DNA of 63,033 nt, filler included, from Chrysochromulina tobinii (GCA_001275005.1; 12 parts of 12 records of this genome joined end to end with filler, not necessarily neighbours in it); one strand, 5' to 3'; numbered from the whole stretch's first letter, positions 11,317 to 36,397 are shown. The notes: generated from the sequence alone by a model not told the origin. Numbers and translations: made by a program.

Positions 11317-14300
11317 ATGGCCTTCAGCGCGCGGCCGTACTTGCAGCAGCAGCAGCAGCAGCAGCAGCAGCGGGACGGCTTTGGCGCGTTCCCAAAGCGC
11401 GTGTGGAGCCCGCGCGACGTGGTCTCCGCTGCGCGGAGGGATGAGGCTCGCAGCAGCACAGCGGATGGCTTGCTCCATCGCAGGGGCCGCGCGCCCAAGC
11501 CGATGGTTCGCACGTCGCTCGGCGCGGAGGCGCGGGCCCTGCTGGCACGAATGGCGTCCGATCAGCCGCCTGGGCCGAGCGGCTTTGGAAGCAAGGTCTC
11601 GATCGATGGCGAGCATTTGCTCGCACTCTTCGGTGGCAGCAAGGTGCCGAAGTGGCTCGAGCCGACAGTTGAGGACACGGCCCATGCGTCGATCATGTCC
11701 ATCGTAAACCAGAGCGACGAGGCGGCGTTTAAATGCCTCAAGAGCCTCATAACAGAAGCGAGCAAATCGATGGAGCAAGCCGAGTCGAAGGCGAAGCTAG
11801 TCGAGGAGAAGCGAACGAAAGCGAGCCGAGAGACGTATGACGAATCCGTGGCGTCGGTCCATGGTGGTCGCAAGCGGCGCAGCCTGCTCGTGGGTGAGCG
11901 CGACGACCTCCGCTGATGACTACTGATGACCACTGATGACCACTGATTGCTTCCCTCATCAGGTGCGCGCGACGACCTCCGCTGATGACTACTGATGACC
12001 ACTGATGACCACTGATTGTTTCCCTCATCAGGTGCGCGCGACGACCTCCGCTCGTCCAAGGACGACGCCGGTGGCGACGTGGCCAACCTCGCCGACCTGG
12101 TCGATATCTTAGAAGAGCATGAACTCTCCGACGAGGGCGATGAGGGCGAGGGGAGAGGGTACGATCGGCGGCTGGCCGACGGCGGTGGCGGCGGCGGCGG
12201 TGCTGGTGCTGGTGCTGGTGCTGGTGATGGCCGTGCTGGCCGTGCCGCGGGCGGTGTGGCGGGCGGCTCGTCGGGTGCAGTGGCCGTGCCGACCCCGAGC
12301 TGGATGAGTATGCCGCTCGTGCCACCGGTGACGCAAGGCAAGGGCCCAGAGGAGGAGGAGGAGGAGGAGGAGGAGGAGGAGGAGGAGGGCAACCACGTCC
12401 GAGGACGACCGTCACGCCTGGCGACCGGTCGACTGCACCGACTGATCGAGGGCAGTCCCATAGCAGGCAACGGAGGCGGCGGCGGCGCTTTGAACCATCG
12501 GTCCTTGCCTAATAAGGCAATCGATGAGCTTCGGAGCCGTGGGGATCTGTCGGAGTGGCCCGAAGCGCTACCGGTCACTCCCGACGCCATCGTGGCGCTC
12601 ATGAAACGCGTCGTCTTCTTCAAAGGGGCTTACACAGCGCATGCCGACTGCCGGCGTACGCTGGCCTCGTGGTTCGAAGTGCAGTACGTCGAGCCGTTCA
12701 CCACGATCGCCGAGGAAGGGCACTGGTGCCACTCGTTCGTGCTGCTGCACACGGGGGCGCTTGAGGCGCGAGGAGCCCCCCTCATTGCCTCCGCCCGTGT
12801 GGGACATGGGGCTTCCATATCAGGCAACCGACACATCCAGGCAGAGGGCGGCGTGGACGGTCGGCCGTTGACGAAAGAGGAGAGAGGCCTCGTGCGTTCT
12901 TCCCTCATGACCAATGATTGCTTCCCTCATCACAAGAGAGGCCTCGTGCGTTCTTCCCTCGATACCAATGATTGCTTCCCTCATCACAAGAGAGGCCTCG
13001 TGCGTTCTTCCCTCATGACCAATGATTGCTGCCCTCATCAGGTGCGCTCTTCCCTCGTGACCAGAGAGGCGCTGCCCGTGCCAACCGTCTCGGGCGAGTT
13101 CGACGCTCTCGAGCCTGTGCTGCTTCTCCCGGGCGCCCACTTTGGGGAGCAGGCCTTCTTTACCGAGATGCGCCCGCATACGTGCTCGGTGCGCACTGAT
13201 GACCACTGATGACCACTGATGACCACTGATTGCGTCCCTCATCTGTACCGAGATGCGCCCGCATACGTGCTCGGTGCGCACTGATGACCACTGATAACCA
13301 CTGATTGCTTCCCTCATCAGGTGCGCGCGCTCGAGCGCTGTGTGCTGATGACCACTGATGACCACTGATGACCACTGATTGCTTCCCTCATCAGGTGCGC
13401 ACGCTCGAGCGCTGTGTGCTGCTCGTGCTCCGGCGCGACGTCCTGGCTGATCAGTTGCCCGAGTTGCCTAACATGGCGCGCATCGCGTGGGCCGAGCAGC
13501 GCGCTCGACACGACGCGCTCTACGGCGCGCTCGCGGGCCGTTGGATCCACCACGCGCTGCGTCGGCTGCATGTCATCGAGCGGCTCCACCGGACGGACCT
13601 GTGGAGGCTCGAGGCGATGGTTACGTACCGTGTGCTCGCGCCCGGCGCGACGCTCTACCGGCTGGGCGAGCGTGTGAGCCATCTGACGATCCTGCTGCGC
13701 GGGGAGCTGGGGTTGCATCAGCCCGGCGCAGACGATGCACATGAGAGGATCGCTGCTTCGCTACGTGTCTCGTTACGAGGCGCGCCGCCGCTGCTCCCCA
13801 ACACAGCGCCGCCGCTGCTGCCCAACACGGCGCCGCGGCGGCTGCCGGAGGACGAGGACGCGGAGCCGACTGACGCGGAGGTGACGGGCGTGGAGGTGAC
13901 CACGCTTTCAAGCACGGCCGGCGCACCCTTCCATCCGGCGCGCTCCATATTAGGCAAGGCCGACCCAGCTTCCAAGCACCGACCCGCTACCACCGAGCCG
14001 GTGCGCGCCGTGTTGGGCACGGCGCGCGCCACGTCGCGTGCGCCGCTGCCGCCGCTACGGCGCCTGGTCACCGAGGCGTCCGCAGTCCCATTCGTCGGAG
14101 ACGAGCCTCTGCTGCTCGCCACGGCGGCCGCCGCGGCTACGGGCGCGCCGTCCGAGTTCCTCGTGCGCGCGCGCACGCCCGTGTGCGTGGCCGTGCTCGA
14201 GTACAGTACTCTCGCGAGACGCGCGCCCGCCCTCCTCACAGAGCTTCGTCAACTCGTCGCCCACGCACGCATGCATCCCTCGAGCCTCATGGCCGCGCTG

Positions 14301-14396
14301 CTGCAGCCGCTGCCACCTCCGCCAGCCCCGAAGGGCAAACACGCAGCCGCCACGATACGCCCGACACGGCGCTTTCGTCAAGAGGGCATCCAGTAG
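11317..14396 (+). CDS. Cyclic-nucleotide-binding domain protein; join(11317..11893,12032..12891,13042..13188,13395..14396), 861 aa
   Basis: Removing three GT-AG introns gives one frame and restores GAHFGEQAFFTEMRPHTCS|VRTLERCVLLVL; a second degenerate cNMP domain follows (PGATLYRLGE..LLRGEL). Confidence 0.8.
11894..12031 (+). mobile_element. Family-1 duplication-flanked intron made of two tandem 69-nt GT...AG units
   Basis: Each unit is a 21-nt copy of the next exon start plus CTGATGAC(T/C)A decamers plus CTGATTGYTTCCCTCATCAG; AG|GT at 11962/11963. Confidence 0.8.
12892..13041 (+). mobile_element. Family-1 intron, three units (54-nt period), internal acceptors changed to TCATCAC
   Basis: Starts GTGCGTTCTTCCCTC versus exon GTGCGCTCTTCCCTC; ends GCCCTCATCAG; 150 nt, in frame and stop-free. 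Confidence 0.7.
13189..13394 (+). mobile_element. Family-1 intron, three units, AG|GT at 13320/13321
   Basis: The last unit starts with a 27-nt copy (1 mismatch) of the next exon; (CTGATGACCA)n; removal restores the cNMP motif. Confidence 0.8.
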
Positions 14397-14693
14397 AGTA
14401 GACCCGATCGGATAAAGCGCCCGACGGCTGTAGCAAGTAAAAAAAATCTTCGGAGTTCGGTGTCCAAACTGCGCTGTATGATAATCTATGATTAGAACGA
14501 TTTCCCCACTGGTTTCGGCAACCACGCGACTTGTTTCTTATGACGCCGATCGACGAGATCGGGTCCTTGATCGGGTCGCACATCGCACATCCACAAGAGG
14601 TGAGCACACAACGCATGTGCCGCGTGGGACGGACGCGGATGGGGATGCTGGCGGCGGGGCCCCGGGCGCCGCCCTGAGAGTGCCGATTCGGTT

Positions 14694-14770
14694 CATCTAA
14701 TGGAGATCGAGCTCCGCCCCTCCTATGGAGATCTAATGGAGATCTAATGGAGATGGAGCTCCGCCCCCTC
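14694..14770 (-). repeat. ATCTCCATTAG 11-mer array with duplicated GAGGGGGCGGAGCTC at the 3' end of the dehydrogenase ORF
   Basis: Read directly. Confidence 0.7.
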
Positions 14771-15880
14771 TCGCGCGCGCTTGGTGCCATAGCGCACGAC
14801 CTCCTGCAGCCGCGTCAGGTCGGCCGCGCTGTGGGGCCCCTCTATCGCGACCGCACTGGGCCAGGACGAGGGCGATGCGCCCACGACGGCGCTCGGCAAC
14901 GGCTCGGCGGGTAGGCCCGCCGCCTCATCCAGCAGATTGCATGCGAGTTGCGGCAGTTGAGCCGGTAGGCCGTGCGCGGCAAAGTAGGGCAGCCGCGAGC
15001 CCCAAAAGTTGCGCCAGGTTCGCAGCGTCGCGCCCGGATTGCGCAGGTAATCAGCCTCGGCGCGGGAGGACATGCGACCGGCAGAGGCGAGCAGAAAGTC
15101 AGGAACCTGTGGGGCATTGGGGAGATGGCGCCGTGGTGAGCACGTGCATGCTGAGGCGAGCCGAAAGTGACGAACCTGCTGCAGCCGGACGCCCGCCTCT
15201 CTCGCGTAGAGGGCAGTGTCGACTCCCTCTGCCTCGAGCATCGCCGCATTCGAGAGGAAGGAGAGGAAGTTGACGAAGTAGAGGTCGACCACCGCGTAGT
15301 CGAGCGCGCGTGAGGCTCCCACTGGGCCGCTGAACGTCACCGTCCCCAACCGGGAGAGCACTCGGTCCCACTCGCGCACGATGGCACCGCCATCGGCGTC
15401 CGAGGAGACGAAACACTGGCCGCCGCCGGCGCGTGCTTTGGCCGGCGAGCCCGAATACGCACCGTCGATGTACGCAGCGACCGTGCTGGCCGTTGCGTCG
15501 CGGACCGTGCGTCCCTCGTCCGGATTGCCGCTCACGAGGTTGCACAGCACCTTGCCACGGAGCGCTGCCTTGTTGGCCGCTGCCTCCGGAGTGGCGCCAT
15601 CCTCGTCGAGGCCGAAGGTCTCACGCACGACAGCTATCGTGGACAGCATCAGGATGACCAACCCGCCCTCACGCACTGCAGAGAGGGCCTCCGGGATACT
15701 TGTAAATGCCGTGCAGGGTGCGTCACCGGGCTCCGTTGCAAGCGCAGCTGCCACAGAGTACGTGCGATTCCATACTGCAACACCCACGCCCTCGTCGCGA
15801 AGCCGCCGCACAAATCCGCAGCCCATCTTGCCGCAGCCAAGTAGCGCCACCTCGAACGAGGCACTCGCGCTCGTCGCCAT
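14744..15880 (-). CDS. NADPH-dependent imine-reductase-like / beta-hydroxyacid dehydrogenase family protein; intron 15107-15175; 3' end uncertain
   Basis: GCGKMG Rossmann motif, VWNRT, YIDGAYSGSP, GASRALDYAVVDLYF..FLSNAAMLEAEGV. Confidence 0.8.
   Translation of the reverse strand: MATSASASFEVALLGCGKMGCGFVRRLRDEGVGVAVWNRTYSVAAALATEPGDAPCTAFTSIPEALSAVREGGLVILMLSTIAVVRETFGLDEDGATPEAAANKAALRGKVLCNLVSGNPDEGRTVRDATASTVAAYIDGAYSGSPAKARAGGGQCFVSSDADGGAIVREWDRVLSRLGTVTFSGPVGASRALDYAVVDLYFVNFLSFLSNAAMLEAEGVDTALYAREAGVRLQQVRHFRLASACTCSPRRHLPNAPQVPDFLLASAGRMSSRAEADYLRNPGATLRTWRNFWGSRLPYFAAHGLPAQLPQLACNLLDEAAGLPAEPLPSAVVGASPSSWPSAVAIEGPHSAADLTRLQEVVRYGTKRAREGAELHLH
15107..15175 (-). mobile_element. Family-2 duplication-flanked intron (69 nt, in frame)
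   Basis: GTTCGTCACTTTCGGCTCGCCTC versus next exon GTTCCTGACTTTCTGCTCGCCTC (20/23); body GCATGCACGTGCTCACCACGGC...CCCCACAG shared with the intron at 61171-61253. Confidence 0.75.
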
Positions 15881-16103
15881 GTAGCGGCCGCCCACGACGA
15901 CGCGTGGTCATTGCACAACTTTCGGCGATCAGGGACTGCCCGACAGTGACCCAGGATACTTGGCGACCCTCGAAATGTGACCTCATTTGGGCTCATTTCG
16001 ACCTCAAGTCCATTTATGGCAAAACGAAAAAAGCATTTTTTCCACTAACGCGAGTGCGCGTCTCGGCAGCCCCGTCTGTGCTGGTCTCTCACCTGGCCTC
16101 GCA

Positions 16104-17165
16104 ATGAGGATTTCGCGCCTTCTCTTTGCTGTGGCTGGGCTATTGCATCCGATCGTGGGCTCGGACACTGCATGTGTAACGGAACAGCACGCTGCGGAAC
16201 GGAAGGAGCAATTTGGGAGTTATGGAGCCCATTTTGATTGCAGCCTCATCAGCCGTGTCCAACCAGGACAAGGCCCACTCTACGTCGCAGTCTTAATCGA
16301 CAAGTCGGGATCCAACACTCTGATGGAGGCCTTCACATTCCGTGCCAGAGATCGAGGTTGGCCCAAGATCTCGGCGTGCTGCCAAGGAACCGTCAAGGAG
16401 CTGACCGAATTGTGTAAGATTCCGTTGATCGGGCCGGACTGTCGATTCAGCCCGGACCACGCTGTCGTGCTAGATCAGCGGTTTGGGTTCTGCGAGGAAG
16501 TAGTGCACGGCTCGAGGCCGTGCCGCTACATCTTGTTGCTGCGAGATCCCATCGATCGACTGATCTCGTCTTACAACTTCTTTTGCGTGGCCTGCCAAGA
16601 AGATGGCCGTGAGTGCAGGCAGGCTGGCCTCGACAATCCCACTTGCAACCAGGCCGGCCTCGACCATCCCAAGTGTAGGCCGTCTGACCTCGACTGCCCA
16701 CGAATGTCGTTGATCGAGTACGCTCTCGCCAAGGGGAGCTATTACGCGAACACCTTATTTCCGAGGAGTAGCCCCAACTGGCGGCAAGCACGCGAGAGCG
16801 TCGACGGAGCATTCCGTGCGATTACGAAGCTCCTCGAGTCAGATGCAATCGCATTCGCATCGACCCTCGAGAACCTGGGATCTCAAGCCACCGCTCTGAC
16901 CAGCCTTCTCTCACCTGCGAACAGTTTGTCCTCACCGCCATCAACATGGGCACGCTCATTACACCGTATCCACAATTCGCTAGCAGGGTCCTGGGACCAC
17001 GCAGATCGTCGAGCCGACCTGTCTCCACTGGCGCAGGCGCGCGCTCGAGTACGAACCAAGGCCAGCCTCAATAGGACTGAGCTGAGGCTCCTTCGAGATA
17101 TTCTTGCACCTGACTATGATCTGTACCATCGAGTCGGTCGCCTTGAAATCAGGAATTCGATCTAG
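16104..17165 (+). CDS. Secretory-pathway sulfotransferase family protein
   Basis: Signal peptide; DKSGSNTL (5'-PSB-like) and LLLRDPIDRLISSYNF (3'-PB); C-terminal DYDLY. Confidence 0.75.
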   Translation: MRISRLLFAVAGLLHPIVGSDTACVTEQHAAERKEQFGSYGAHFDCSLISRVQPGQGPLYVAVLIDKSGSNTLMEAFTFRARDRGWPKISACCQGTVKELTELCKIPLIGPDCRFSPDHAVVLDQRFGFCEEVVHGSRPCRYILLLRDPIDRLISSYNFFCVACQEDGRECRQAGLDNPTCNQAGLDHPKCRPSDLDCPRMSLIEYALAKGSYYANTLFPRSSPNWRQARESVDGAFRAITKLLESDAIAFASTLENLGSQATALTSLLSPANSLSSPPSTWARSLHRIHNSLAGSWDHADRRADLSPLAQARARVRTKASLNRTELRLLRDILAPDYDLYHRVGRLEIRNSI

Positions 17166-17323
17166 AATGTGCGCGGCGGTCGCGTCGTGTTGGTTGCGGA
17201 GCGCGTGACCTAGATACATCTCCACACCGCACAGGGGGTGTGAAGACACAAAAATGGCGAGAAAGTCCTGCAAGCGTGTGCCGTCGCGGCCGTCTTTTTT
17301 GAGGACAGCGCCGCCATCCATCC

Positions 17324-18100
17324 ATGGACGAGGCTGCCGAGGCTGAGGCGCCACCGAACGCCGACGAGGCCGAGATATCCGGGTGGCACATGGACGAGGC
17401 TGCCTGGTACGATACGGTCGTAACGCATTGGACCAAGGCAGTGAGCGCCGAGGACAACGACGGCGTCCTCGGCGGCTGGGGTTGTGTCGATGAAGAGGAC
17501 GCGCGCGGCTCGCTGGCCTTCCTCGCGCAGACTTTGGGCGTGCCGGCGGCGCAGTGGCCCATCGCAGGGTATCGCGCCCTCGACTGCGGCGCTGGCATCG
17601 GCCGTGTGACCGGAGCTGTTCTGCTCAAGTCGTCCGAGAGGGTGCACCTGGTCGAGGTGAGCGAGGCGCTGCTCGCACAGGCAGCTGTCAAGCTGAGCGA
17701 GCACGCGGCGCGCATCGAGTGCTCTCAGACGTCGCTGCGCGACTTCGCTCCACCGGCGGGCTCGTACAACCTTGTATGGTGCCAGTGGGTGCTTGGCCAT
17801 CTGACCGACAGGGACGTAGTCGCTCTGCTGCATCGATGCCGGAGCGCGCTGCGGCCGGGCGGCGCACTATTTGTCAAGGACAACGTGGCTCCATCGAAGC
17901 AATGCCCCTACGACGGCAAGTACATGCTCGACGAGGAGAACGCGGGCGTCATCCGGACGCACAATCACCTGTGGGCGCTCGCCCGGGCCGCGGGCTTCAA
18001 ACTGTCCAAGACGGCGCTGCAGACGAATTTCCCCGAGGGCCTGTACCCGGTGCGCATGTACTGCTTCGTGCCCAAGGAGGAGAGTGCTTGCTGCGTCTGA
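17324..18100 (+). CDS. NTMT1: Alpha-N-terminal protein methyltransferase (NTMT1/Tae1 family)
   Basis: DGVLGG, ALDCGAGIGRVT, WCQWVLGHLTD, VKDN, FPEGLYPVRMY. Confidence 0.93.
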   Translation: MDEAAEAEAPPNADEAEISGWHMDEAAWYDTVVTHWTKAVSAEDNDGVLGGWGCVDEEDARGSLAFLAQTLGVPAAQWPIAGYRALDCGAGIGRVTGAVLLKSSERVHLVEVSEALLAQAAVKLSEHAARIECSQTSLRDFAPPAGSYNLVWCQWVLGHLTDRDVVALLHRCRSALRPGGALFVKDNVAPSKQCPYDGKYMLDEENAGVIRTHNHLWALARAAGFKLSKTALQTNFPEGLYPVRMYCFVPKEESACCV

Positions 18101-18350
18101 GATCAACTAGGACAGCTCCTTGTCATGAATAGGCGCGCGGTCAGGTCTCCGGCCGGCAAGCTTCGTGTCGCTCCGTGTAGGGTGTCGCGGCGCGGCGGCG
18201 GTGTTGTCTCATCTCTCATGTTGTCTCATGTTGTCTATCTCAGTCTCAGTCTGAGTGCGGCCATGTGCGGCGGCGGTCGTTCACACCTCGTCGGCAAAGC
18301 GTGTGCTCGCGCTCGCGACAAGAAAGCCCGCTTTGCAGGCCCTGTTGCCG

Positions 18351-22044
<3,694 letters not shown>

Positions 22045-22176: not shown

Positions 22177-25100
22177 GCGTGGAGATAGCCCCGGGCTCAA
22201 AGAGCTCATGCAATTGCGAGTAGGTGGCGAGGTGACTGCTGAAGATGTGTATAATTTTGAAGTGCGGCCAAGCATGACCAGGGAGCAGGGACATGAGCTT
22301 TGAAGTGGCTGTCGCGGAGCTCAACCGCACCAAAGGAGAGGCCTTTGCAGCTGTGTGGTTGACGAAATTGAGAAACAGAGCCAACTCAATTCAGCAGCAG
22401 AGAGGTGGGTTGTACACGGGCCATCACGATTGCGTCCGCTCAGTCTTCTGCAACCTGAATGCTGGAAGTCCAGAGCATGCCCAAATGTGCTTCGGCTGCA
22501 TGCTTCTGCTCTCAAATAGATCGTTCAATCGGCGTGTGAGGGCGCGCACAGAGTCTGGCCCAGAACCAGCCCAGACAGCCAAGTATTCGACGCTCACGGA
22601 CGATCAGAAGAATAAGCGGCTGAAAGAGCGGCATGATGATGCCGCGGTGGACGCGAAGCGAGAACAACGGCATGATAGAAGCGCAGATCGCATGCTTGCA
22701 GCTGCACACGCCCGCTTTGAGGTCGCACAGCTAGAGGCCCTCAGCATGTTAAGGAGCTTCATGACATCTGAAGCTCAGAGGGAACTCGAAAAATCGAGTT
22801 TGGAAGGCCAGCTTGAGGCTGCAGTATCAGCCCAACAGGAGGCAGAGCAAGCCTTAGAGCAGGCCACCACAAGCATGGGAGAGTCACTTATTGAGATCAC
22901 TCTGAAAGCTGCGCATGCTCAGGCTCAGCTAACTGCGCATCAGCTAGAGACAGCCTCAGCCCAGCTCGCGCATCAGAGAGAGATGGCCTCCGCCCAGGTC
23001 ACGCATCAGAGAGAGATGGCCTATGCCGAGATCGCTCATCAGAGAAAGATCGAGAGAGAGACGGCCTCAGTCGAGAAGGCGCATCTGCAAGAGATGGCCT
23101 CAACCCAGATCATGCATCAGAGAGAGATGGCCTCAGTCAAGAGGGCACATCAGAGAGAGACGGCCTCAGCCCAGATCGCGCATCAGAGAGAGACGGCCAA
23201 GCACGTACCAAGCTACCAAGCACGAGCGAGATATGGGGATGCTTAAGAAGGCGCACGAGATGGAGCTTGCATCCAGAGAAGCAGCCTTGGCTGATAGCTT
23301 TGGGAAGCTGCCGCTCGTCATTCAGAATCTGATTGTGGCCAACAAGACGGGTGCCTTGGAGAAGAATGCAACCACTGTTGCTCACTTGCTCTCCTAGAGG
23401 GGTCTGCGCCATGCGACCGTACTGGAACATGTACTCTGAGAATCGTGATGAGAATCGTGAGCCGTCTGGCCTGAACTGGCCGCCCCAGCACTCGCGGAAC
23501 TGGACGAAGCGCAGGATGCAGCCGTGGCAGGAGGTGATGAGGTCCAGGCACGTTTCTCTCGTCAAGAAGTTGATTTTCAGGTCGAAGCGATCGCTGACAT
23601 AGTACCGCCAGTGCAAAAGGAAGGCGAGGACCAAGGCGGCGTCCTTCACAGCATCAACTGGATTAGGATCACCATTCCGATCCTTGAGCCAGCTCTCAAG
23701 GTACCGCTGGAAGACGACAATCACTGCGTACGTGCCCTTGAGTTGCGTCTCCTGGGACGGGCCGTCGATGCGAGCCTTTAGGGCAGCTGCAACCGCTGGG
23801 CTGAACATCTTGAGCACGCCGGGCCAGTGCTGTTTGTTGTGTGGGTCGAGGTCCTTGCCGTTGAGCAATACATCCCCTGTCACATTGCGCAGGTTGGTCA
23901 GGTGGGCTGCCGCCGTGGTCAGCCCCGCCCCAATCTGCCACACTTTTCTCGGGGAGAGCATCTGCACGCGCCTTCTGGGTAGTGCGCAGATGCGGCCCGA
24001 ACAGGTTGTTCGCGACAAACTTGTGAGCCCAGGGCGAGCCCGAGTTGAGCAGCAGGCCGTAGAAAGCCTTCTCAGTGTCGTTGAGCTTGCGACCACGAGT
24101 AGATCCGTTCTTCAGGCAGGTTGAGATTCAACTCGCCTGTATGTTGCCAATCGACCAAAACGTTGAGCCGTCTGCGCGCGTGAAAAGCACTGCCAGGTCG
24201 TCGTCATCTGTGATATAGTCCAGGTCCGGATCGACAGCGTCACCTGCTCGCAAGTGCCCCTTGAGCAACCGCTTCACATGGAAGCGATACTTACGATCCT
24301 TGGACTCCTCCTGCAGCGTCTGGTTGAAGGCCGCGAGCAGCGCACTGAGCCACTGACCTCCTCTAGCACCGCCGCCCTGTCTGGGCTGAGCTCTTGTTCA
24401 TCTTCTGGGAGGGCAGTGCGCATCAGCTGGCCGAGCACCGCGTCCGCATCTTGAGCATCCTGAGCGGCGATGACGGTCTGGTCCACCGCCTCGCCATCCG
24501 GGCGGGCTTCCGTGGGGTCATCCTCCTTGTCACCCTCCTCAGCCATTGCAACACTGTATGTTCGATCCTTGAGTGGGAAGTGCTTCCACGGCTGCTTGAA
24601 AAAGCCATTCTGTACCGAGAGGTTGGTGTCGATGCCAATGTACGCAAGCAGCTGGATGGCGTCTTGGACACCGCAGTCGATCGCCGCAGTCAGGGCAGCA
24701 TCAGTCGGGTGCCACGACGGGCTGAAGGTCGGGATCTGAACACGATCAATGCTGTGTGGGATGCCTCGGAGAGACTGGGGCAGGCGCAACCCCGGGTTGT
24801 CGGCCTCGAGGTGCTGGTTGTAGAGGTAGTGCTGCATGTGGATAAACCAGCCCTTGACCAACACGAGAGGCGGTTGCAGTGGCGAGGGGCAATGTTGACC
24901 GTGCGAGGGCAGTCGGGGCTCGTAGCGGGGTCTACCTGGCTTCTCTTGATGCGGACGAGCGCCCCATCAAAGGGGTGCACATCGACGACCCCAAAGCCAT
25001 GTTCCTCTTTCGCTGGTACCAGGAGATAGACAAATCGGGCAAAGTGTTAAAGGGCTACCAAAACAAGGAGTGCACGGCCTACTTTCTCCCTCACGACAAT

Positions 25101-25309: not shown

Positions 25310-25552
25310 GGCTCGACAGCTCAATAGCTCGACAGCTCGACACACGCTTGACACCTCGACACCTCGACAGGCTCGACAGCTCGACAAAGCTCGACAGCTT
25401 CTCGACAGCTCGACGCGCCGGCACATGTAGTCAGCCTCGACGGGGCTCGACAGGAACTCGACAGGCTCGACAAGGCTCGACAGGCAAGGCCTCGTACGAC
25501 AACGGCCTCGACAACGGCTCGACGGAGCCTCGACAGCTCGACAGCTCGACAG
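25310..25552. repeat. Array of about 20 CTCGAC(A/G) motifs, probable transposon subterminal repeats
   Basis: Starts about 65 nt after the transposase stop; irregular 8-13 nt spacing. Confidence 0.75.
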
Positions 25553-25723
25553 CCAGGGCTCAAGGAAGGAGAAGGAGAGAAGAGGGAGTCTGTAGAAGAA
25601 ATGGCACTAATATAGCTCCGTAGAATATAGTGTGCTGCTTTATATCTCAAGCATTCTATAACGTTACAGGTACGACGCTCCGCGGGCTCTTTCCTCGCGG
25701 GCGTCCCGTCGGCGGCGGCCGGG

Positions 25724-25827: not shown

Positions 25828-25860
<33 letters not shown>
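25724..25860 (-). repeat. 15-nt GC-rich repeat encoding a PPPPS-like tract, interrupted by a stop
   Basis: (GGCGGCGGCGGCGAG)n on the + strand. Confidence 0.7.
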
Positions 25861-27084: not shown

Positions 27085-27446
27085 CGGAGGTGGCGAGGGC
27101 GGGGGACGGAGGTGGCGGGGATGGCGGCGGTGATGGTGGCGGCGAGGGTGGAGGTGATGGAGGTGGCGACGGTGGAGGTGATGGAGGTGGCGACGGCGGC
27201 GGCGATGGAGGTGGAGAGGGTGGCGGCGATGGTGGCGGTGAGGGTGGCGGAGATGGCGGCGGAGATGGCGGTGGGAAGGGTGGCGGGGACGGAGGCGGCG
27301 AGGGCGGTGGCGATGGTGGTGGCGACGGCGGAGGAGATGGCGGCGGCGAAGGTGGCGGTGATGGCGGCGGCGAAGGTGGCGGTGATGGCGGCGGCGAGGG
27401 CGGTGGCGGGGGTGGCGGTGATGGTGGCGGCGACGGTGGCGGCGAG
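27085..27446 (-). repeat. 12-nt repeat encoding (SPPP)n; fragment of a Pro-rich gene at a contig end
   Basis: Synonymous variation among units suggests a coding origin. Confidence 0.7.
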
Positions 27447-27546
27447 NNNNNNNNNNNNNNNNNNNNNNNNNNNNNNNNNNNNNNNNNNNNTTAATTAATT
27501 AANNNNNNNNNNNNNNNNNNNNNNNNNNNNNNNNNNNNNNNNNNNN

Positions 27547-29871
27547 ACGACGAACATCGTGACGTACTACGTTCCGTACCCGTCTCCGTCACGACCTCCA
27601 TCTGCGCCACCTTCGCCGCCTCCGCCCTCGCCCTCGCCGCCCCCGCCCTCGCCCTCGCTGCCGCCGCCATCCCCGCCGCCCTCAGCATCCCCACCCTCAC
27701 TGCCGCCACCGCAGCTGACACCTCCGCCTTCGCCGCCTCTGCCTTCGCCGCCTCCGCCCTCGCCCCCGCCGCCTTCACCACCTCCGCCGTCACCGCCACC
27801 GCCGCTGCCACCGCCGCCGTCGCCACCACCGCCGCTGCCACCGCCGCCATCACCGCCACCGCCGTCGCCACCACCGCCGCAGCCGCCACCGCCGTCGCCA
27901 CCACCGCCGTCGCCACCACCGTCCCCGCCACCGCCTCGCCACCGCCACCTTCGCCACCGATACCTTCCCCCCCTCCCTCTCCACCTCCGCCCTCGCCTCC
28001 GCCGTCGTCGCCGCCGTCGCCACCTCCGCCTTCACCACCTCCGCCCTCTCCACCGCCGCCCGCGCCACCGCCCTCGCCGCCGCCCCCCTTTCCTCCACCA
28101 TCATCGCCACCTCCTTCGCCAGAGCCATCGCCGCCTCCGCCGCCAAGCCCGTTATCCCCCGCACCGTCGCCACCACCTCCAAGCCCTCCGCCAAGCCCGC
28201 CTCCCTGCCCGCCGCCACCATCACCGCCACCTTCGCCACCACCTCCGTCGCCCCCACCGCCGCTGCCACCGCCGCCATCACCACCACCACCCTTGCCTCC
28301 GCCGCCCTCGCCTCCGCCGCGGCCGCCACCCTCGCCACCGCCACCATCACCTCCACCGCCATCGCCACCTCCTCCTTCACCACCACCACCCTCGCCTCCG
28401 CCTTCGCCACCTCCACCGTCTCCGCCGCCGTCACCGCCACCGTCTCCACCTCCGCCCTCTCCGGCGCCACCTATGGGTCGACACCCTGACCAAGCACTAC
28501 TGGAGCAGCTTCCCTTCGAGCATCTCCGTCCCGAGGCGATGGGCAGCGGCGTTCTCGCTTCAGGCCCCATCGGCAGCTCCATTGGACCGGGGCCGCATGG
28601 AAGGCCCCAGGGATCGCATCTGGCGCTCGTTCCAAGATTATCCGCGCACATGAGCTCTGTGCTAGGGCTTAACGAAGAATTCCCAGGCAGCCTGTGCATC
28701 GATGATGATCTCTCGACCTACTGCCATACGCAGCCCGCCGACTGCCCCGACTCGAGGGCGGACAACTACGAAGCCAGCTTCAACACCCCCGGTCCTACCG
28801 CTTGCGTCTTCCTCGGCTGCATGAACTCGTTGGACAGCAGGTACTCTTCGATTGCCACCATTAGCGACGGCTCGTGCCCCGACGCCCCAGGCTGTGCCGA
28901 CTCTGCTGCGGCCAACTACAACCCGGCCTACAACGTGCAGGTGGCTGGCTCGTGCACGTACGGCGGCTGTATGACACTAGGTGATGCCAACTACAGTGCG
29001 CAGAACACCTTTGCCATCCCTGGCTCGTGCGTGGGCTCGGGCCGCCGCCTCGAGGAGGGCGAACACCCGGGGTGCTTGGACCCGACCGCGTATACGTTTT
29101 ATGCCTGGGCCACGTCGCACGATCAGTCGATGTGCACGTACATCATCGCTGGATGCACGGATCCCAACGCGTTCAATTACATGCCGGCTGCCACGCCGGG
29201 AAACGCACAGGCCTCGTCGGCTTGCATCGCTCGTGTCACCGGCTGCATGTCGCCCACGGCACTCAACTACGATAGGAACGCCAACACCGCTGGGACGTGC
29301 ACGTACGCCCAGTCGAGTCCGTGGCTGTCCATCCGGATCCCGGGCAACACCTCCTGGGCCCCAGCGTCGCCCGTGAGCCACGTTCAAATCTACAACCGGC
29401 TCGACTGCTGCTGGGATCGCCTCGGTCACTTCCAGATCTGGGTGGGCAAGTCTGTGGGCGACTACAACTCCTCCACTTCCGAGCAGTGCGGCTTCCACTA
29501 CGGAGGCGCTGGCGATCAAAGCGGCCGGCCGGACGCCCACTGGACTGTGGAGGCGCCCGCCACGGTCGGCCCGTTTTCATTTGATTGCAACCAGATCGTC
29601 GGCTGGTATGTGACCATCGTCCTGCCCGGCGCGAGTCGCACCTTGAACCTTGCCGAGGTGCGCATCTTTTCCACGTACGAGTCGCCGTCGCCCCCGCCGC
29701 CGTCGCCGCCCCCGCCCTCTCCGCCCCCATCGCCGCCGCCCCCTTCGCCTCCCCCGCCGTCTCCACCACCGCCGTCGCCGCCCCCACCGTCTCCACCTCC
29801 TCCCTCGCCGCCCCCGCCGTCGCCGCCGCCTCCATCACCTCCGCCACCCTCGCCGCCACCTCCATCGCCGC
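27547..29871 (+). CDS. Extensin-like Pro-rich protein with an F-type (fucose-binding) lectin domain carrying seven inserted GCxD-type Cys repeats; partial at both ends; one frameshift near 27935
   Basis: MSS...CIDDD..TYCHT ... PWLSI ... IYNRLDCCWDRL ... GWYVTIVLPG..RTLNLAEV; repeats such as GCTDPNAFNY. Confidence 0.8.
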
Positions 29872-29971
29872 NNNNNNNNNNNNNNNNNNNNNNNNNNNNN
29901 NNNNNNNNNNNNNNNTTAATTAATTAANNNNNNNNNNNNNNNNNNNNNNNNNNNNNNNNNNNNNNNNNNNN

Positions 29972-31194
29972 ACAACGGAAGCGCCTTCGCCAACAAGCTC
30001 ATGGATGCCTCGGAGCAGCTGTACGGATACCGTATGATACATGTCATGCCCCATACACCGCAAGCGAACGGACTTGCTGAGGCGGCTGTGAAGAAACTGA
30101 AGGTTGCCCTCGACCGGCATACAAGCGATTACCAAGGATGGAAGCCACTTCTCCCCGCGATCCAGCACTGTGTCAATCAACGATTATCGCGCGACACGCA
30201 AGTACCTTTCGTGTCCCTTTTCGGCTACCCCCCACCGACGCTTGCGGCCCTAGAGCAACCATATTTACTTCCCACCGCTAGTCCGGAGGAACGCACTATC
30301 CAAGAGTTCGGATTGCGAATGAGGCGAATGCATCTGAGACTCACGAGAGAGCTTGATGATCTCAAGGACGCAGAGACACGACTGATGCCCTCCCCGAAAC
30401 CACTCCGTACAGTACTACCAGGAGATAAGGTGTGGCTGAAGTACAGCGATTCGGAGAAGTCGCGTTATATACGCAAGCATGGCAAGGGACTCGCCTGGAG
30501 GCACGCGTTCACGGTACTCGCGGTCAAGCCCCATGCCGTATTACTCGAGGTGCCATCGGACGGATCAGTTCCGGATGTGCTTCCCTGGCAGTCCCTCAGA
30601 AAGTGCAGTTTCGCTGCCCCTTTCTTCCACGACCCCGAGCTTGTGTTGCCCGATGTTGACGAACATGCCCTGCCGATGACCCCGGAACCGGACGCCTTGG
30701 CGTCGCTCATCAACACCCCCACGATCGTTGATGATTTACCTGCGCTGCCGATCGACGATGCGCCAGATGAGTGGCACGCGTGGCGTGAGGATAAACTCTA
30801 CGACATCGAAAGTATCGTTAGTGCTGAACCATCCGGTCGTGGATGGAAGCTAAGGATCAAGTGGGAGGGCCACCCCACAGTCACCACCGAGAGATTGTCA
30901 TCCATCGTGAGTCGGGTAACCGACCGGCGTATACTGGAGGAGATCGACCTCCGTAAGGCGGAGTACCAGAGCCGGTATGCCACCGTGCCGTCGCCACCCG
31001 AGACAGCTACCGTAGTAGCAATGGCGCCTACTAGGGTGCAGCCCGCCAGGTCTAGTCGAGCTCATCCAGTGTTCTTACTGTCTACCGATGATAGAAGAGC
31101 CGACGCTACGCTGTTCGAGTTTGCCTGCTCGGTGCTGCACGTTGAGTCAGGGAAGAGGACGCAATCCCTGCACCAGTTGGAAGACGTACTCTGA
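29972..31194 (+). mobile_element. Gypsy/chromovirus LTR retrotransposon pol C-terminus: integrase plus chromodomain; 5' partial
   Basis: (D)NGSAF, PHTPQANGLAEAAVKKLK, PFVSLFG, PGDKVWL, YDIESIV...LRIKWEGH. Confidence 0.88.
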
Positions 31195-31899
31195 TGAGCT
31201 CTCGTACTACTGCGAGCTCGAGGGGGTGATGATACGTCTCCACCCTCCCTACACTACACCCCGAGGACTCCCACCCTCGCTTCGGGTCACTCGAAGCGAG
31301 TACACCGGAACGGCGCGCCCAAATCGCCCAAGGTGAGGTAGTTTCGTGCAACTACCTCCCAAATCCAGCCTTGTTGTTTAGTTGGGCGGGCGCGTGGATA
31401 CCGGTAGAAGGGTGCGTTACGTTCGAGATATAGTGGCCACCTCGCGGTGTTCCGATAGATCCGTCGTCCCAGGCCCTGCCTGACAGCCAGTTCGTGATGT
31501 TATCTGTTCCTAATACGCTCAATCAACCCTCCAACCCCAAGCTCATCAGTGGTAGCCCGGACGGGGTCAATCGGGGAACTCGAAGTGCCCGGTGACCATC
31601 AAATCCCTGCTGTACCCCGCAGCCCGACGCCCTCGACCAGACCCAAGGACCCGTATCTCGTCTACAACCAGCCTGGGCGCCAGAACAAGCCCACGAACGA
31701 GAGCTTTCCGACGCCCCCCTCACCACCGAGAGCGCTGGAAAACTCACCGCACACGACGACCCCGACGACGCAAGCCGCGGCCGCAGCAACACCGCAGGCG
31801 GCAAAGCTGGCAAGCATCGCCGCGAAGTCGCACGGCGAGCGCACGCGCACGCGCATCACGCGCAGCGCCACCTCACCGAGCACGGCCATCAACGCCACC

Positions 31900-31987
31900 T
31901 GTATTTCAGATACATGACACACAAGATACATTCAAGATACATTCCGGATACGTATGGGATATATCGAGATACACATCAAGATACGTA
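31900..31987. repeat. AT-rich cluster of (A/G)GATAC motifs at a contig end
   Basis: About six GATAC copies in 90 nt. Confidence 0.6.
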
Positions 31988-32087
31988 NNNNNNNNNNNNN
32001 NNNNNNNNNNNNNNNNNNNNNNNNNNNNNNNTTAATTAATTAANNNNNNNNNNNNNNNNNNNNNNNNNNNNNNNNNNNNNNNNNNNN

Positions 32088-34467
32088 ACGCCAGCTGATG
32101 TCGGCCTACTCGAAGCTCATCTACTGCCTCGTGGTCGCTACGTGGACGACCGTCTACATGGAGAGCTGGAAGCGCAAGAATGCAACGCTCGCGTACATCT
32201 GGGACGTGGCCGACTTCAAGGAGGAGGAGGACCCGCGCCCCGAGTTCATCAAGAACTTCAACAGCGGCATTTGGAGGGCAAGCAAGAAGGAAGAGGAGGG
32301 CAAGAGCTGGTGGGAATACGTGGGCAAGGACATGCACATGAAGGAGGGTCCCGGCTTCTTCACGGAGGACGGCAGATTCGTCGAGGTCGAAGCGGAGAGC
32401 AGCTCCGCGGCGGAGAAGCAGATCTACTTCCCCCAGAAGCACCGCCTCACGATCATCACCTTTTTTGCCATGCCGCAGCTCCTCTTGTTCACCAGCGCGA
32501 TGATCGTCGGCGCGGCTTCGATCATGGTCTTCAAGTTTCTCGTGAATACGACCGATCTCTTCCTCAATGATGAGTTCTGGGGCGGAGGGTTTGGCCAGCA
32601 AATTCCGATGCTGTTATCGGTGATCTGGATGTCGATCATGAACTGGGTGTACACAGCACTCGCCACATGGCTCAACGGCCTCGAGAACTACCGCACTGAT
32701 ACCGAGTACGAAGACCATCTCATCCTCAAGGTGATGCTGTTCACCTTCATCAACTCGTACATCACGCTCTTCTACATCGGATTCGCGAAGGCCATCGGCT
32801 ACCCACTCAACTTGGGCAAGTATGGAAAGTACGAGGACATGTGCGGCTTCTATCCGGGAAATGGACCTCCCGCGCCTTGGGACGGCGCCGCCCAGGGTGT
32901 CTGCGGCGTGAAGCAGGGCTGCTTCCGGTACGCCCAAGTCAACCCTCTGTGCCCAAGTCAAGCCACAGACTGCTGCAATTATGACGCGCCCACGCTAGCA
33001 ATGTCTGGGTGCGATTTCATCTTCATCGAGCGCGACTGCACCTCGGACCTGCGCCTGATGATGGTGAGCTACACGCTTCTCAAGCAGGTGTACGAGGGCC
33101 TGCTGCAGGTTGCCATCCCCATGGTAATGACATGGATGAACAAGACAACCCTCCATAAGAAGATCAAGCACATGGAGATCGAGAAAGAAAAAGAGAAGAG
33201 CATGCGAGAAGGAGAAGCCTTCTCCACCGCCGAGGAGGGTCCGCCTCCGCCGCCGTCAAGCAAGGACGAGGAGCTACCGCTCCCCCCGCCGCCGCCGCCC
33301 GCGAGTGAGAAAGTCGAATCGGCAGTGCCCTCGCCGCCTCCCTCGCCGCCTGAACAAGAGATGACAGTTGCGGTCAAAGTGCAATCGGACAACGGTAGCT
33401 CGTGGCTCACGAAGGGATCGATTGCGGTTGACGAGATGTCGCCTGACGAGGCGCGCGAGGCCTTCCACAAGGCGATCGAGCTCGAGGCCACGCATGCGCG
33501 CTTTGAGGGCACTTTCGACGAGTACTTGACCAAGGTGACCCAGTTTGGCTACGTCTCCATGTGGTCGCCCGCCTTTTTGATCGCCTCGATCGCGGGGGCT
33601 GTGGGCAACTTTATCGAGCTCCGACTCGACGCGATCAAGGTTCTCCAATCGCGCCGGCGCAAGTACGAGGGCGCGGAGGACATCGGCACATGGCGGGACG
33701 TGATCGTCCTTATGTCGTGGATCGCGCTGCCCGTCAACGCCCTGCTCCTCGTCTTCACCTCGTGGACCTTTCGCAAGTACGTGATCGCGCCCGGCATCGC
33801 CACAGGCCCCTGCAAGGAAGCCGAGCCCTTCGGCTTCTCTGTCGCCGACAGCGCCTTCCTCCTGCAGCCCAGTGGCGGCGGCTCACTGCCCGCATATCAG
33901 GCGATGCTCTCGCCGCGCGCGAGCTTCTACGGCACTAACACGACCTTCTATACCAAGTGCGAGCAGAATATCAACGACTGCTGGGCGCCTGTGGGCGGCG
34001 TCGAGTGGCTGCCCGCGATGACATACCTCATCGGTCCACGCTGGGTTGACGGGCATTCACCGTCCACGGTCAGGCTTTATAAGGCGCTCTGCGACCCAGA
34101 GTCGCCGCTGCACCACCCGATGCATTGCCGCACGTGCCAAGGCTGGGGCAACGAGGTACTCTTCATCCAGCTGTGTGTGTTTGTCATCGTGGAGCATATC
34201 CTCCTCATCGTCAAGTTGATCCTCGCCTACGCCATCCCCGACTCGCCGGAGTGGGTGCGCGATGCGATCGCGCGCAGAGATTTCGTTGAGGCTAGGCTGT
34301 CCAAACGTGCGGTGGCGAAAGAGCTCCTTGACCCGGGGATCGTCGCAATCCACCGCGAGGAGCTGAAGAAGGTGGAGATCGCCAAGATCAAGCTGCTCCT
34401 GAATATGCCCACCCCCATCGGTGGACCCCAAGCAGGTGGGCCGGATCCATCGGTTGACCGGATCTGA
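32088..34467 (+). CDS. Anoctamin/TMEM16 family channel or scramblase; 5' partial
   Basis: ESWKRK, PRPEF, ENYRTDTEYEDHLILK..FINSY, QFGYV, IELRLDA.K, AEDIGTW, IPDSPEWV. Confidence 0.92.
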
Positions 34468-34756
34468 AACCGTCTATAACTGAAAACAACTCGACCGGGG
34501 CGGAAGTACCGGAAGGAGTCATCCGCCACTCGACTTGAGGCCTCGTGACTCGACTCTCGTGCTCAACCGCAGCGGCCAGCGCATGTGTAGGGGACGGCCT
34601 GGTTACAGATCATACCATGCTGCGCACCTGCGCTCTCATGAACTGAGGCTGTTTGAGGTACGCACCGCGTCACGTTTGAAGTTTTATACGAGTAAAAAAT
34701 ATATTACAAATAACCGGTCGAGCGGACCGTCGCGGTCCCCTCCGACAGGACCCGTC

Positions 34757-35152
34757 TAAAGGGTGAGGACCAATCAACCACCCGCGACGTGATGCTGAAC
34801 GGGGAGCGGCTGGTCATCGCGATGATTGCCGACGGGCACACGTGGCAAGGTAGGGTCGCCGCATTGCAAAGAAATGGTCGTCGACGAGCTCCTTGAGGTG
34901 CTGAAAGTCTCGGAAGGGTTGCATGTGAGTGCTGCGGGCACTCACGCATTCTTGAAGGCGCACGAAGAGGTACTCGCGATGATGGGAACGACTGCTGGCA
35001 GCACGCTCGGCGTGATCGTGCTCGACGCTACTCGCGCCGAGCTGACCGTGTTGCACTGCGGCGATAGTGTGGCTCGCCTCATCCCCCGCCGTTCAGCCGC
35101 AATGGGCCTCTGCGAGGACCACCGACCCGAGTCGTCCGAGTCCGAGCGCGCC
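34757..35152 (+). pseudogene. PP2C-type phosphatase fragment, frameshifted and truncated
   Basis: KGED...MIADGH, a frame change, then AGSTL...HCGDS...EDHRPESSESER; coding signal ends there. Confidence 0.7.
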
Positions 35153-35298
35153 ACGGCCGGCCTTCGGGCCCCGTGCGCTTGTGGCCTGGCGGCGTCGCCC
35201 TGGCCCGCACAGAGCGGAGCCCCCCCTCCCCCGCAATTGCCAATAGCTCGCACATCAATTCTGAATCAGCTCACGAGCGCACGCTCCACCCAGCGTTC

Positions 35299-36397
35299 CT
35301 AGGCGGCATTCAGGGAGCCGGCCTTCCAACCCATGACGAGCTCGAGCGTCTCACGCGGGCAGTACCACGTGTCCACCTTGGACGCCGCCATCTCATACGA
35401 ATGGCTGCCAAGCGGCAGGTAGCCGGAGACCTCAACCTTCTTTGCCTTGTCGGGTTGCTCCGTCGGGAGGAGCGTGCGCAGCTCGCCCATCAGCAGGCGC
35501 ACGGCGGACTGAGACGAGCCGCCCACGAAGCACAGGCACAGGTTAGGGCCCTCCCAATCGGGCCCGATGATGGCGAGAGCCTGGGGCGCAGAGTCGGAGC
35601 TCGACGGGCCGGCCTCCTCGCCTGATGAGGGAGGTCATCAGAGGTCATCAGAGGTCATCAGAGGTCATCAGAGGTCATCAGAGGTCATCAGAGGTCATCA
35701 GAGGTCATCAGAGGTCATCAGAGTCGGAGCTCGACGGGCCGGCCTCCTCGCCTACGACGTAGCACTGCCCCTTGTCGAGGCGGACCTCGAGCTCGGCTTC
35801 GTTCAGGCTCTTGAACTGGCCCGGCACGTCCATCATCATGCCCTTTGTGGCTGCATAGTAGTCGCTGCTTTGCACCAGAGCCCACAGGGCACGGAGGGTC
35901 TTCTCACGCTCGGCCGTGCCTGCGGGCATCATGGCCGGGTCGAGCTTGACCGCATGGGTCATCACCGGGGCGTTCATGGGCCGTTCCGAGGTCTGGCACC
36001 AGCGGAAAGGCACGAACTCAAGCCCGAACTTGGCCTGACATAGGTTCTTCATGGGCTCATTCGCCGATGTTGTGGCCATGCGGATATCGGTGAAGCCCTT
36101 GGATGCAAGGTCCTTGTCCATGCCACGAATGAGCGATGTGGCGATACCACCGCGGCGAATCGCAGGGTCCGTGCGCAAGGCGTTGAGGAAGGCCTCTCCC
36201 CGTCCCTGGTCATACGCCATGAAGATTGCAGCCGGAACACCCCGCAAATCAGCGCGGTAGCACGTCCATGCAGGGCTGGATTTGAACATGTCCCAGTAGG
36301 ACGGAAGCCAATCCTTTTCACCGTCGTTTATCTTCTCCCTCACGGCGGCCTTCAAATCGTCGTCAAATGCTCCAGCATACACGCGGAGCTCGTCCAT
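35299..36397 (-). CDS. GNAT acetyltransferase; join(35752..36397,35299..35621) with a GC-AG intron
   Basis: DWLP, LNALRTDPAIRRGGIATSL (acetyl-CoA motif A), TTSANEPMKNL..KFG; intron removal joins two ORFs in frame. Confidence 0.8.
35622..35751 (-). mobile_element. Family-1 intron, apparently very young: exact 33-nt exon duplication, (TGATGACCTC)9, CCTCATCAG; GC donor
   Basis: Read directly; no mismatches in the duplication or the array. Confidence 0.85.

Follow-up and report, generated by a model that had tools for sequence, protein, structure and literature searches.

The window, by which we mean the whole 63,033-nucleotide stretch analysed, is haptophyte sequence from Chrysochromulina tobinii, made up of contigs joined by N linkers. 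It contains eleven introns with internal tandem arrays, spread over a cNMP gene, PRP16 and a GNAT gene, as well as members of a putative second, array-free family. Splicing was checked with contigs alone, taken from four RNA runs and compared with the predicted GT..AG sites (RNA joints). The features are as follows, with the evidence for each in brackets.

11894..12031, plus strand: compound cNMP-gene intron, two 69-nt units removed as one (sequence; RNA joint in runs X15 and X17)
12032..12052, plus strand: exon copy of the 21-nt duplication (sequence comparison)
12892..13041, plus strand: compound cNMP-gene intron (sequence; RNA joint in X15)
13189..13394, plus strand: compound cNMP-gene intron (sequence; RNA joints 13156-13242 and 13272/13274-13394)
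15107..15175, minus strand: 69-nt intron, second family (RNA joint in X15 and X16)
19345..19542, plus strand: PRP16 intron with diverged arrays and family acceptor, next-exon match of just 6/7 nt (alignment; RNA joint)
19764..20032, plus strand: PRP16 intron with two internal duplications (sequence; alignment; RNA joint)
20116..20320, plus strand: PRP16 intron with its own GTGCGC donor and without a long duplication (alignment; RNA joint)
20859..21017, plus strand: PRP16 intron with array and family acceptor, ends sharing CAG|GTG only (alignment; RNA joint)
21128..21289, plus strand: PRP16 intron with 20-nt duplication (two mismatches) and 12-nt array (alignment; RNA joint)
21497..21626, plus strand: compound PRP16 intron with 9-nt and 15-nt next-exon copies (alignment; RNA joint; a DNA contig spans the intron)
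21796..21951, plus strand: PRP16 intron with a different 10-nt array, without family acceptor or duplication (alignment; RNA joint)
35622..35751, minus strand: predicted GC-AG intron in the GNAT gene (sequence only)
61171..61253, minus strand: predicted 83-nt intron, second family (from the sequence alone; removal gives an open frame)

Array introns in three genes

An earlier note on this DNA had described introns with CTGA-containing arrays in three unrelated genes, and we count eleven. A variant of CCCTCATCAG forms the acceptor end of nine (the exceptions begin at 19764 and 21796), with examples in all three genes, and each of the fifteen acceptor-type matches in the window lies on the sense strand of the host gene, a point in favour of the explanation preferred below. 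Selection in exons could, on the other hand, produce both this sense bias and the fixed AG end. The array unit is 10, 11 or 12 nt long depending on the locus, and the 5′ parts of the introns are locus-specific; whole copies do not share the near end-to-end identity of introners. Inserts terminate at the acceptor AG and have no poly(A) or simple-repeat 3′ tail of the non-LTR retroposon kind.

RNA contigs join the predicted GT..AG sites at ten of the eleven array introns (three in the cNMP gene and seven in PRP16), the GNAT intron being predicted, and the inserts at these ten are spliced out exactly, as introners are. Because RNA contigs join across them, these inserts are real spliced introns. 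Where a segment is duplicated, the splice runs from the GT that opens the left-hand copy to the shared tail's AG and a single, right-hand copy stays in the mRNA, which bears out the note's proposal that the duplication supplies the donor.

Each 69-nt unit of the 11894 intron consists of a 21-nt copy of the start of the next exon, an array of CTGATGAC(T/C)A and the acceptor. The duplication has one mismatch, the copy in the second unit being perfect; the intron is joined in two of the four RNA runs, and loci L004, L008, L010 and L013 show the same structure. At 12892 the basic unit of 42 nt combines a 22-nt duplication (two mismatches) with a 20-nt acceptor end; the next-exon copy described earlier is thus present, though not at the 15 nt then given. 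Two additional 54-nt units take in 12 nt of upstream-exon sequence and terminate in CAC instead of CAG. This intron is joined in one of the four runs; the other three stop at 12913 with two other letters, and two of these have a loose end matching the exon. The 13189 intron is ordered as an 8-nt-copy unit (13189/13274), an internal 85-nt repeat with the upstream exon end, and the unit 13321-13394, whose 27-nt copy has one mismatch. Its 13272/13274-13394 joint is found in one of the four runs, and the number of units varies between assemblies. After intron removal the cNMP model is open, with 863 codons and a stop.

The PRP16 introns are joined in all four RNA runs, except that at 19345, which is joined in three. 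The intron at 19764 contains one internal duplication of the upstream exon end and donor, and another of its own locus-specific acceptor plus 15 nt of next-exon sequence. Purely local duplications often occur in these introns; since this one copies a locus-specific acceptor, local copying alone can build units of exon start plus tail. An internal repeat in the 20116 intron carries a decoy acceptor at 20180, and the copies at 21497/21560 have no mismatch (9 nt) and one mismatch (15 nt). The PRP16 model is 804 aa long, stop-free and gap-free across all seven junctions against its closest homologues. The closest named matches that are likely haptophytes come from Prymnesium parvum (64%) and Emiliania huxleyi (58%); other matches reach 77% with full coverage.

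The predicted GNAT intron comprises a perfect 33-nt duplication (35 nt including the preceding AG), nine 10-nt units and the acceptor. An acceptor at 35581 instead broke the frame for all three donors tried. The note's statement that removing the introns restores conserved motifs exactly agrees with the gap-free PRP16 alignment; in GNAT removal gives an open frame with seven residues more there than in the single full-length homologue.

The 69-nt intron at 15107..15175 has no CTGA array. It ends in CCCCACAG, carries a 23-nt duplication with three mismatches and has a core (15127-15151) that is high-copy in DNA run X1. At 61171..61253 a perfect 26-nt duplication extends to 43 nt with four mismatches. 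These copies point to a second, array-free intron family with the same long-duplication footprint, which is new here. A generic duplication scan, noisy with coding repeats (one to six matches in a shuffled null), served only to confirm second-family copies.

Long duplications and intron gain

A next-exon copy of 15-33 nt opens six of the eleven array introns, far above chance. All six copies listed in the note were found, measuring, besides the one at 12892, 21 nt at 11894, 27 nt at 13321, 20 nt at 21128, 9 plus 15 nt at 21497/21560 and 33 nt at 35751. Of the other five introns, that at 19345 has 7 nt with one mismatch and those at 19764, 20116, 20859 and 21796 have 1-3 nt; these five, and locus L026, which is likewise without a long duplication, sit poorly with the explanation we favour. 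When intron starts were paired with the exon starts of other loci (272 cross-pairings), the best score was 9 apart from a single 17, between the L007 intron and the L002 exon; the self scores of the long copies are 12-33. Across 6,488 GT and 14,934 GC starts in the window, the score of each long copy was equalled only by its own copies.

Duplications measure 15-43 nt at twelve loci, 8-43 nt among duplicated units and 1-43 nt over all copies. Four new loci were chosen elsewhere by tail or cassette alone, and all four carry duplications of 15-23 nt. An identical 30-nt tail is found at six distinct unlinked loci, and similar sequence thus lies in unrelated genes, as with introners. A scan of prokaryote genomes returned twelve loci, of which only L023 and L026 resemble family members; the other ten were set aside as unrelated repeats. 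Among viral contigs, three array and acceptor patterns gave no matches, and the second-family core matched one contig end. Where the protein is conserved, the intron copy and not the exon copy is the changed one. To read the mismatches as an age series, as the note did, is plausible; some of them are not plain marks of age but make the donor better.

Uninterrupted sites in relatives were inferred from protein records of genomic-looking ORFs. The PRP16 ORF P0005 (77% identity) is open at all seven intron sites and runs at its end into an unaligned read-through that looks like intron; six of the sites are open in P0006 and five in P0010. Full-length ORFs lie on contigs of 12-28 kb. At L002, an Hsp70-family gene, the intron site is open in each of the ten sequences of a cluster with 90% identity. 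The bases duplicated there encode a motif that can be recognised in 23 of the 25 homologues, and the duplicated segment is therefore native exon. Since the ORFs of relatives are uninterrupted at the sites, one of them at 90% identity, the introns are gains: in these protein records the positions are absent from relatives of both PRP16 and the Hsp70-family gene, as for introners and as expected from the earlier note. The introns are spliced and lineage-specific, with the donor inside a long exon duplication.

Origin of the introns

The start of the L007 intron matches the L002 exon over 19 of 20 nt and its own exon over only 14 of 15. The junction between duplication and filler at L002 is also found in the L007 intron, and the L002 filler is identical to the end of the L001/L009 duplication. 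One insert holds coding-exon sequence carried by another gene's intron, and introns thus appear to have been copied from introns, which is new here. The L001-L002-L007 link is based on three loci. The 5′ start of the insert varies between loci, and the end of the copy tends to show microhomology with other introns, also new here. Of the 12 junctions, 8 have microhomology of at least 3 nt, where a null of our own making gives 10.6%; with the three linked loci dropped, the mean is 2.1 compared with 0.97 in this null (p ~0.01). A caveat on both figures is that the arrays are periodic. Four of the twelve junctions have no microhomology to the small intron pool. Same-gene clustering of tails was not significant (ranks 41 and 24 of 84), and we claim no preference for nearby templates.

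The earlier note had proposed that a tiny cassette inserts with a long, variable duplication. Insertion of this kind agrees with the spliced inserts, the GT donor from the duplication, the gains and the recurrent footprint. But units differ by locus, the 5′ start is variable, one insert carries exon-derived sequence from another gene's intron, one family is array-free and five of the eleven introns lack a long duplication; what inserts is probably not one tiny fixed cassette. On balance, we lean towards an explanation in which introns arise by copying the 3′ part of an existing intron into a staggered exon break, with the duplication giving the donor. The free end of the target would pair over 3-14 nt with an existing intron, in its array or 5′ part, synthesis would proceed along that intron as far as the acceptor, and the strand would rejoin 8-43 nt back, duplicating the target. 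Exonic inserts would survive only where the duplication starts with GT or GC in a form usable as a donor. Each new intron may itself become a template, and slippage or unequal exchange between direct repeats would later multiply units and arrays.

We slightly favour an RNA template over DNA repair synthesis. In the RNA form, a retroelement enzyme acting in trans would reverse-transcribe intron RNA in a target-primed reaction; the 22 long ORFs of the window scanned against Pfam contain no RT or endonuclease domain. Non-LTR elements and SINEs that move by TPRT leave a fixed 3′ end, a 5′ end truncated to varying extents with microhomology, and a duplication of variable length, and the present introns, a small sample, share all three. 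Unlike such elements, they have no tail, promoter, ORF or partner element that we could find, and what moves is the end of an intron. It is possible, though we put it forward only tentatively, that there is no dedicated element and that any intron 3′ end can be copied into exon sites by homology-primed synthesis, the process propagating itself. Intron would then beget intron, fragments of one gene's exon would be carried into another's intron, and a genealogy could be read from nested duplications.

The long duplications might instead be built locally in two steps, which we regard as unlikely. A whole intron would insert with a short duplication or none, its tail and the exon start would be tandem-duplicated, and the first unit would be deleted between GT(G/A)CGC repeats, leaving an apparent long target duplication. 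Short-copy units do precede long-copy units at 13189-13394 (8 and 27 nt) and 21497-21626 (9 and 15 nt), the introns at 20116 and 20859 resemble whole-intron copies, and there is local duplication at 19764-20032, with unit numbers that differ between assemblies. However, an unseen exact deletion would be required at 21128, 35751, 15175, 61253, L002, L006 and L007, the L002 exon sequence within the L007 intron would go unexplained, and the first copy would still require a means of moving. An assembly artefact around short repeats is hardly credible: the number and order of 85-nt units at 13160-13320 vary between assemblies, and G and T are swapped between copies in the window relative to L003 and L011, but mismatches distinguish the copies, the altered copy is the intron one where the protein is conserved, X1 DNA contigs show no differences where they pass from the exon to the copy and the array, and the RNA joins remove exactly these inserts.

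Repair of staggered breaks with unrelated filler, as in Daphnia, the tails becoming alike through gene conversion or convergent branch-point-rich satellites, strikes us as improbable. Arrays do vary among loci, and repeats of 10-11 nt in haptophyte introns are reportedly described in the Emiliania genome paper. A staggered break would also explain the duplications, yet the full shared tail is already in place at loci whose duplication is perfect, the same 30-mer recurs at six unlinked loci, and flanking repeats here are not confined to the 4-12 bp given for Daphnia in the sections consulted (PMC4202315). More doubtful still is a miniature DNA transposon like the Symbiodinium introners, bounded by inverted ends of 7 bp (CTGATGA...TCATCAG) and mobilised by a transposase of the cut-and-paste type. 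The array start and acceptor form a perfect 7-nt inverted repeat that is paired in predicted folds, the duplication adjoins CTGATGA in six units, and the duplication provides the donor, as it does in dinoflagellate classes 4, 5, 6, 8 and 10. Against this, published duplications are 3-9 bp and fixed within each family, whereas here they span 8-43 nt in duplicated units and, over all copies, are not of the short fixed length of MITEs; several inserts start away from the inverted repeat; the second family is without such ends; and a stable hairpin was rejected, since folding is no better than in shuffles (z -1.5 to +1.5).

Comparison with known systems

The origin of new spliceosomal introns is a long-standing question, and about 72% of the introner families catalogued in PMC12130899 have no assigned mechanism. 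This genome offers hundreds or more young introns, whose duplications preserve the target site and the homology at the junction and in some cases point to the donor intron; the mechanism is therefore directly testable. Such introns may escape searches for end-to-end similarity, so the route may be undercounted in haptophytes. Templated copying would bring together intron transposition and break repair with duplication, which have been separate models. We found no description of intron copying with a long target duplication in the sections of the intron-gain literature searched, and those of PMC2784329 and PMC4580454 do not mention the array repeats.

Intron gain in Daphnia pulex by staggered double-strand-break repair (PMC4202315; PMC3443670) likewise leaves an exon direct repeat at the intron's far end, and young introns there often have secondary internal duplications. 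The repeats in those accounts are short (4-12 bp in 33 cases) and no repeated filler family is described in the parts consulted, as opposed to 15-43 nt at twelve loci here. Tandem genomic duplication of an AGGT segment, which supplies both splice sites (PMC3443670, in part), also takes its donor from duplicated exon sequence; here a foreign tail common to the family brings the acceptor, and AG is often missing from the upstream exon. Micromonas introner elements, for which the portion consulted gives an R-loop reverse-splicing model (PMC4540971), are also repeated introns on the coding strand only that encode no protein, but an intron put in by clean reverse splicing would be whole, and neither a long duplication nor 5′ truncation would be expected.

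Among haptophytes, the available part of the catalogue (PMC12130899, supplement file 8) lists Emiliania huxleyi fam24, with five copies and '10bp terminal direct repeats', and Pavlovales fam1, with seven copies and a non-LTR class, both co-opting the 5′ and carrying the 3′ splice site; its entry for C. tobinii has no families. Many Chrysochromulina MAG families are tabulated elsewhere, their duplication status mostly given as '?' (PMC9860276, table). These families share with ours a haptophyte host, short introns, a co-opted donor and a carried acceptor, along with direct repeats in one family and a non-LTR label in another, and are set apart by entries that describe neither a long variable duplication nor intron-to-intron copying. 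Introners of Symbiodinium and Polarella glacialis (classes 4, 5, 6, 8 and 10) take their 5′ splice site from the duplicated target (10.1101/2020.10.14.339549; PMC9860276 Fig. 2B). As far as the portions consulted describe them, a repeated insert brings the acceptor, the duplication provides the donor (GT or GC), and the mRNA regains its original form on splicing, just as here. They differ in having fixed 3-9 bp duplications and terminal inverted repeats, whereas the C. tobinii introns have variable duplications of 8-43 nt, a variable 5′ end, a satellite body and filler that can derive from the exon copy of another gene.

Array introns in the window and their splicing

The window consists of twelve contigs separated by N linkers, with a GC content of about 63%. 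As the earlier note had it, array introns are common to several genes: eleven were found in three (the cNMP gene, PRP16 and GNAT), each with arrays of 10–12-nt repeats, and nine of them end in a variant of the shared acceptor. Six of the eleven also carry, at the start of the intron or of a unit, a copy of the next exon's first bases (15–33 nt). The copy lengths are as claimed except at 12892, where we count 22 nt, not 15. The other five have no long copy of the next exon. For the chance level, 272 cross-pairings of intron starts with the exons of other loci gave scores of 9 or less, with one exception (outside records L007 and L002); self scores were 12–33.

Splicing was followed on assembled contigs of four RNA runs, not raw reads. 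Joints were present for 11894–12031 (two of the four runs), 12892–13041 (one) and 13274–13394 (one) in the cNMP gene, for 19345–19542 in PRP16 (three), and for the other six PRP16 introns in every run, which confirms the junctions checked in both genes. Every RNA-joined array intron uses GT..AG, and mature RNA keeps the right-hand copy of the duplication. The GNAT intron is a prediction:

35751–35622, minus strand: GNAT intron, predicted, GC donor

Compound introns are spliced out whole, and RNA contigs there contain the end product only; retaining either unit at 11894 would introduce stop codons. Internal acceptors lie within compound introns at 20180, 21559, 11962 and 13320, three of them immediately followed by GT, and are candidate recursive-splicing sites.

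The region is present in seventeen public runs (six of them RNA), possibly all from one culture or campaign. Positions 16172–17203 have zero RNA cover, so the RNA libraries are not simply DNA. Across six runs, RNA contigs are almost absent from the wider sulfotransferase-like ORF region (15919–17203) but cover its neighbours, and the region serves as a silent-stretch control.

Other repeats were seen in the window. A third array type (14654–14790, minus strand; 11-nt unit, CAG end) near the 3' end of a dehydrogenase-like gene is possibly another repeat-filled intron. An irregular GCTCGACA-type satellite of 8–12 nt occupies 25311–25553, apparently a noncoding location. Coding-type tandem repeats of 33 nt (22935–23198) lie on a lower-GC contig, where none of four long ORFs had a Pfam match.

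Intron gain and the reliability of the assembly

The nearest named haptophyte homologues of the PRP16 exon are from Prymnesium parvum (64% identity) and Emiliania huxleyi (58%), with other relatives reaching 77% at full coverage; the nearest named match of the L002 gene is Haptolina. From these relatives, the window DNA is judged to be haptophyte.

Spliced PRP16 aligns without gaps to its closest homologues at seven junctions. Its intron sites are uninterrupted in three protein relatives, at seven sites in P0005, six in P0006 and five in P0010; the unaligned read-through in which these three end identifies them as genomic ORFs. Other relatives are full-length ORFs on 12–28 kb contigs. L002 is an Hsp70-family gene, and all ten members of its cluster at 90% identity are open across the intron site. 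The motif encoded by its duplicated bases can be recognised in 23 of 25 homologues. The earlier note proposed comparison with intron-free alleles in related strains; judged from these protein records of relatives, the array introns are lineage-specific gains.

Contigs of X1, a public DNA run possibly from the source sample, read from exon through copy into array with zero differences from the window, and the 11894 structure recurs in four other records. Where copies differ within conserved protein, the altered one is the intron copy. Within the internal 85-nt repeat (13160–13320), exon-end copies range from two to four across five assemblies, and at 13157–13245 a T and a G are swapped between exon and internal repeat copy relative to outside records L003 and L011. 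Unit counts excepted, the duplications are not an assembly artefact, an explanation we regard as scarcely credible.

Family members beyond the window

Scanning metagenomes for nothing but the 30-nt tail returned fifteen stretches, representing six distinct loci, two of them the window's own. The scan for common-tail introns bore out the expected duplications at all four new loci (21, 20, 23 and 15 nt), and removing each insert opens the reading frame. A fifth outside copy, L026, has no long duplication. L023 and L026 carry haptophyte-type arrays and the acceptor on contigs filed in bacterial genome bins, probably through contamination. Contig depth in X1, summed, reached 78,149 over arrays and 45 over unique sequence, which cannot be read as a copy number but does show the family to be large.

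A second family has no CTGA array and the same duplication footprint:

15107–15175, minus strand: second-family intron, no array, 23-nt duplication, RNA-joined in two of four runs
61171–61253, minus strand: second-family intron, predicted, no array, 26–43-nt duplication

Its core is high-copy in X1, with 33 contigs having loose ends at 15151. At the end of a viral-collection contig (L028, 2869–3060), 38-nt direct repeats flank a 10-nt array and the second-family core comes next; this contig end is probably a mis-joined eukaryotic fragment.

Mechanism and published systems

We lean towards homology-primed copying of the 3' part of an existing intron into a staggered site. The duplication provides the donor, and selection would retain inserts beginning with GT or GC. 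At eight of twelve junctions the end of the duplication equals 3–14 nt of another intron, directly before the same filler (10.6% in a simulated null); such microhomology was absent at four. When three mutually linked loci are left out and one value is lowered, the mean stands at 2.1, compared with 0.97 in the null (p ~0.01). The first bases of the L007 intron agree with the L002 exon at 19 of 20 nt, more closely than with L007's own exon, and the match runs on through L002's duplication-to-filler junction. L002's filler is identical to the end of the L001/L009 duplication. Since the bases duplicated in L002 belong to native coding sequence, L007 would most simply derive from copying an L002-type intron. 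Target-primed reverse transcription leaves a fixed 3' end, a variable 5' end and a variable duplication; because the inserts recall this footprint, an RNA template is slightly favoured over DNA. DNA repair synthesis would fit the 9–14-nt homologies as well. Further clues to the mechanism are the like footprint of the second family and the orientation of the acceptor-type matches: all fifteen in the window are sense-strand, for which selection alone could suffice.

Several results speak against the copying reading. Five of the eleven array introns have no long copy, the tails do not cluster by gene, and we found no stable hairpin in the inserts and no reverse transcriptase or transposase domain among 22 ORFs scanned. 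Local duplications are common, and the one at 19764–20032 copies its own unusual acceptor. At two loci a unit with a short copy precedes one with a long copy, the order predicted by whole-intron insertion with later local duplication and deletion, a rival we think unlikely though worth keeping in view. Break repair with homogenisation afterwards appears improbable, and a miniature DNA transposon a little more improbable still.

The array introns are new introns that form a real, lineage-specific class with RNA support. They behave like introners, yet do not fit the fixed-duplication kinds. Emiliania introns reportedly carry 10–11-bp repeats. The literature searched, with few subscription papers, did not describe long duplications of variable length accompanied by satellite tails, or intron-to-intron chains. 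We set the family apart from published ones by their descriptions, not consensus sequences, so it may already be catalogued without a mechanism. The available text of one survey (PMC12130899) gives an Emiliania family whose terminal direct repeats are 10 bp long and a non-LTR family in Pavlovales, and lists none for C. tobinii; the remaining intron-gain models are treated, in the portions available, in PMC3443670, PMC4540971 and PMC11282704. Another survey, as far as its accessible text goes, reports numerous Chrysochromulina families, among them one of opposite polarity whose duplication is 4 bp (PMC9860276). Its introner duplications measure 3–9 bp and the Daphnia repeats 4–12 bp (PMC4202315, accessible part), whereas those here span 15–33 nt at six of eleven introns. 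Dinoflagellate introners likewise draw the donor from the duplication, but from one of 4–8 nt in the text available (10.1101/2020.10.14.339549).
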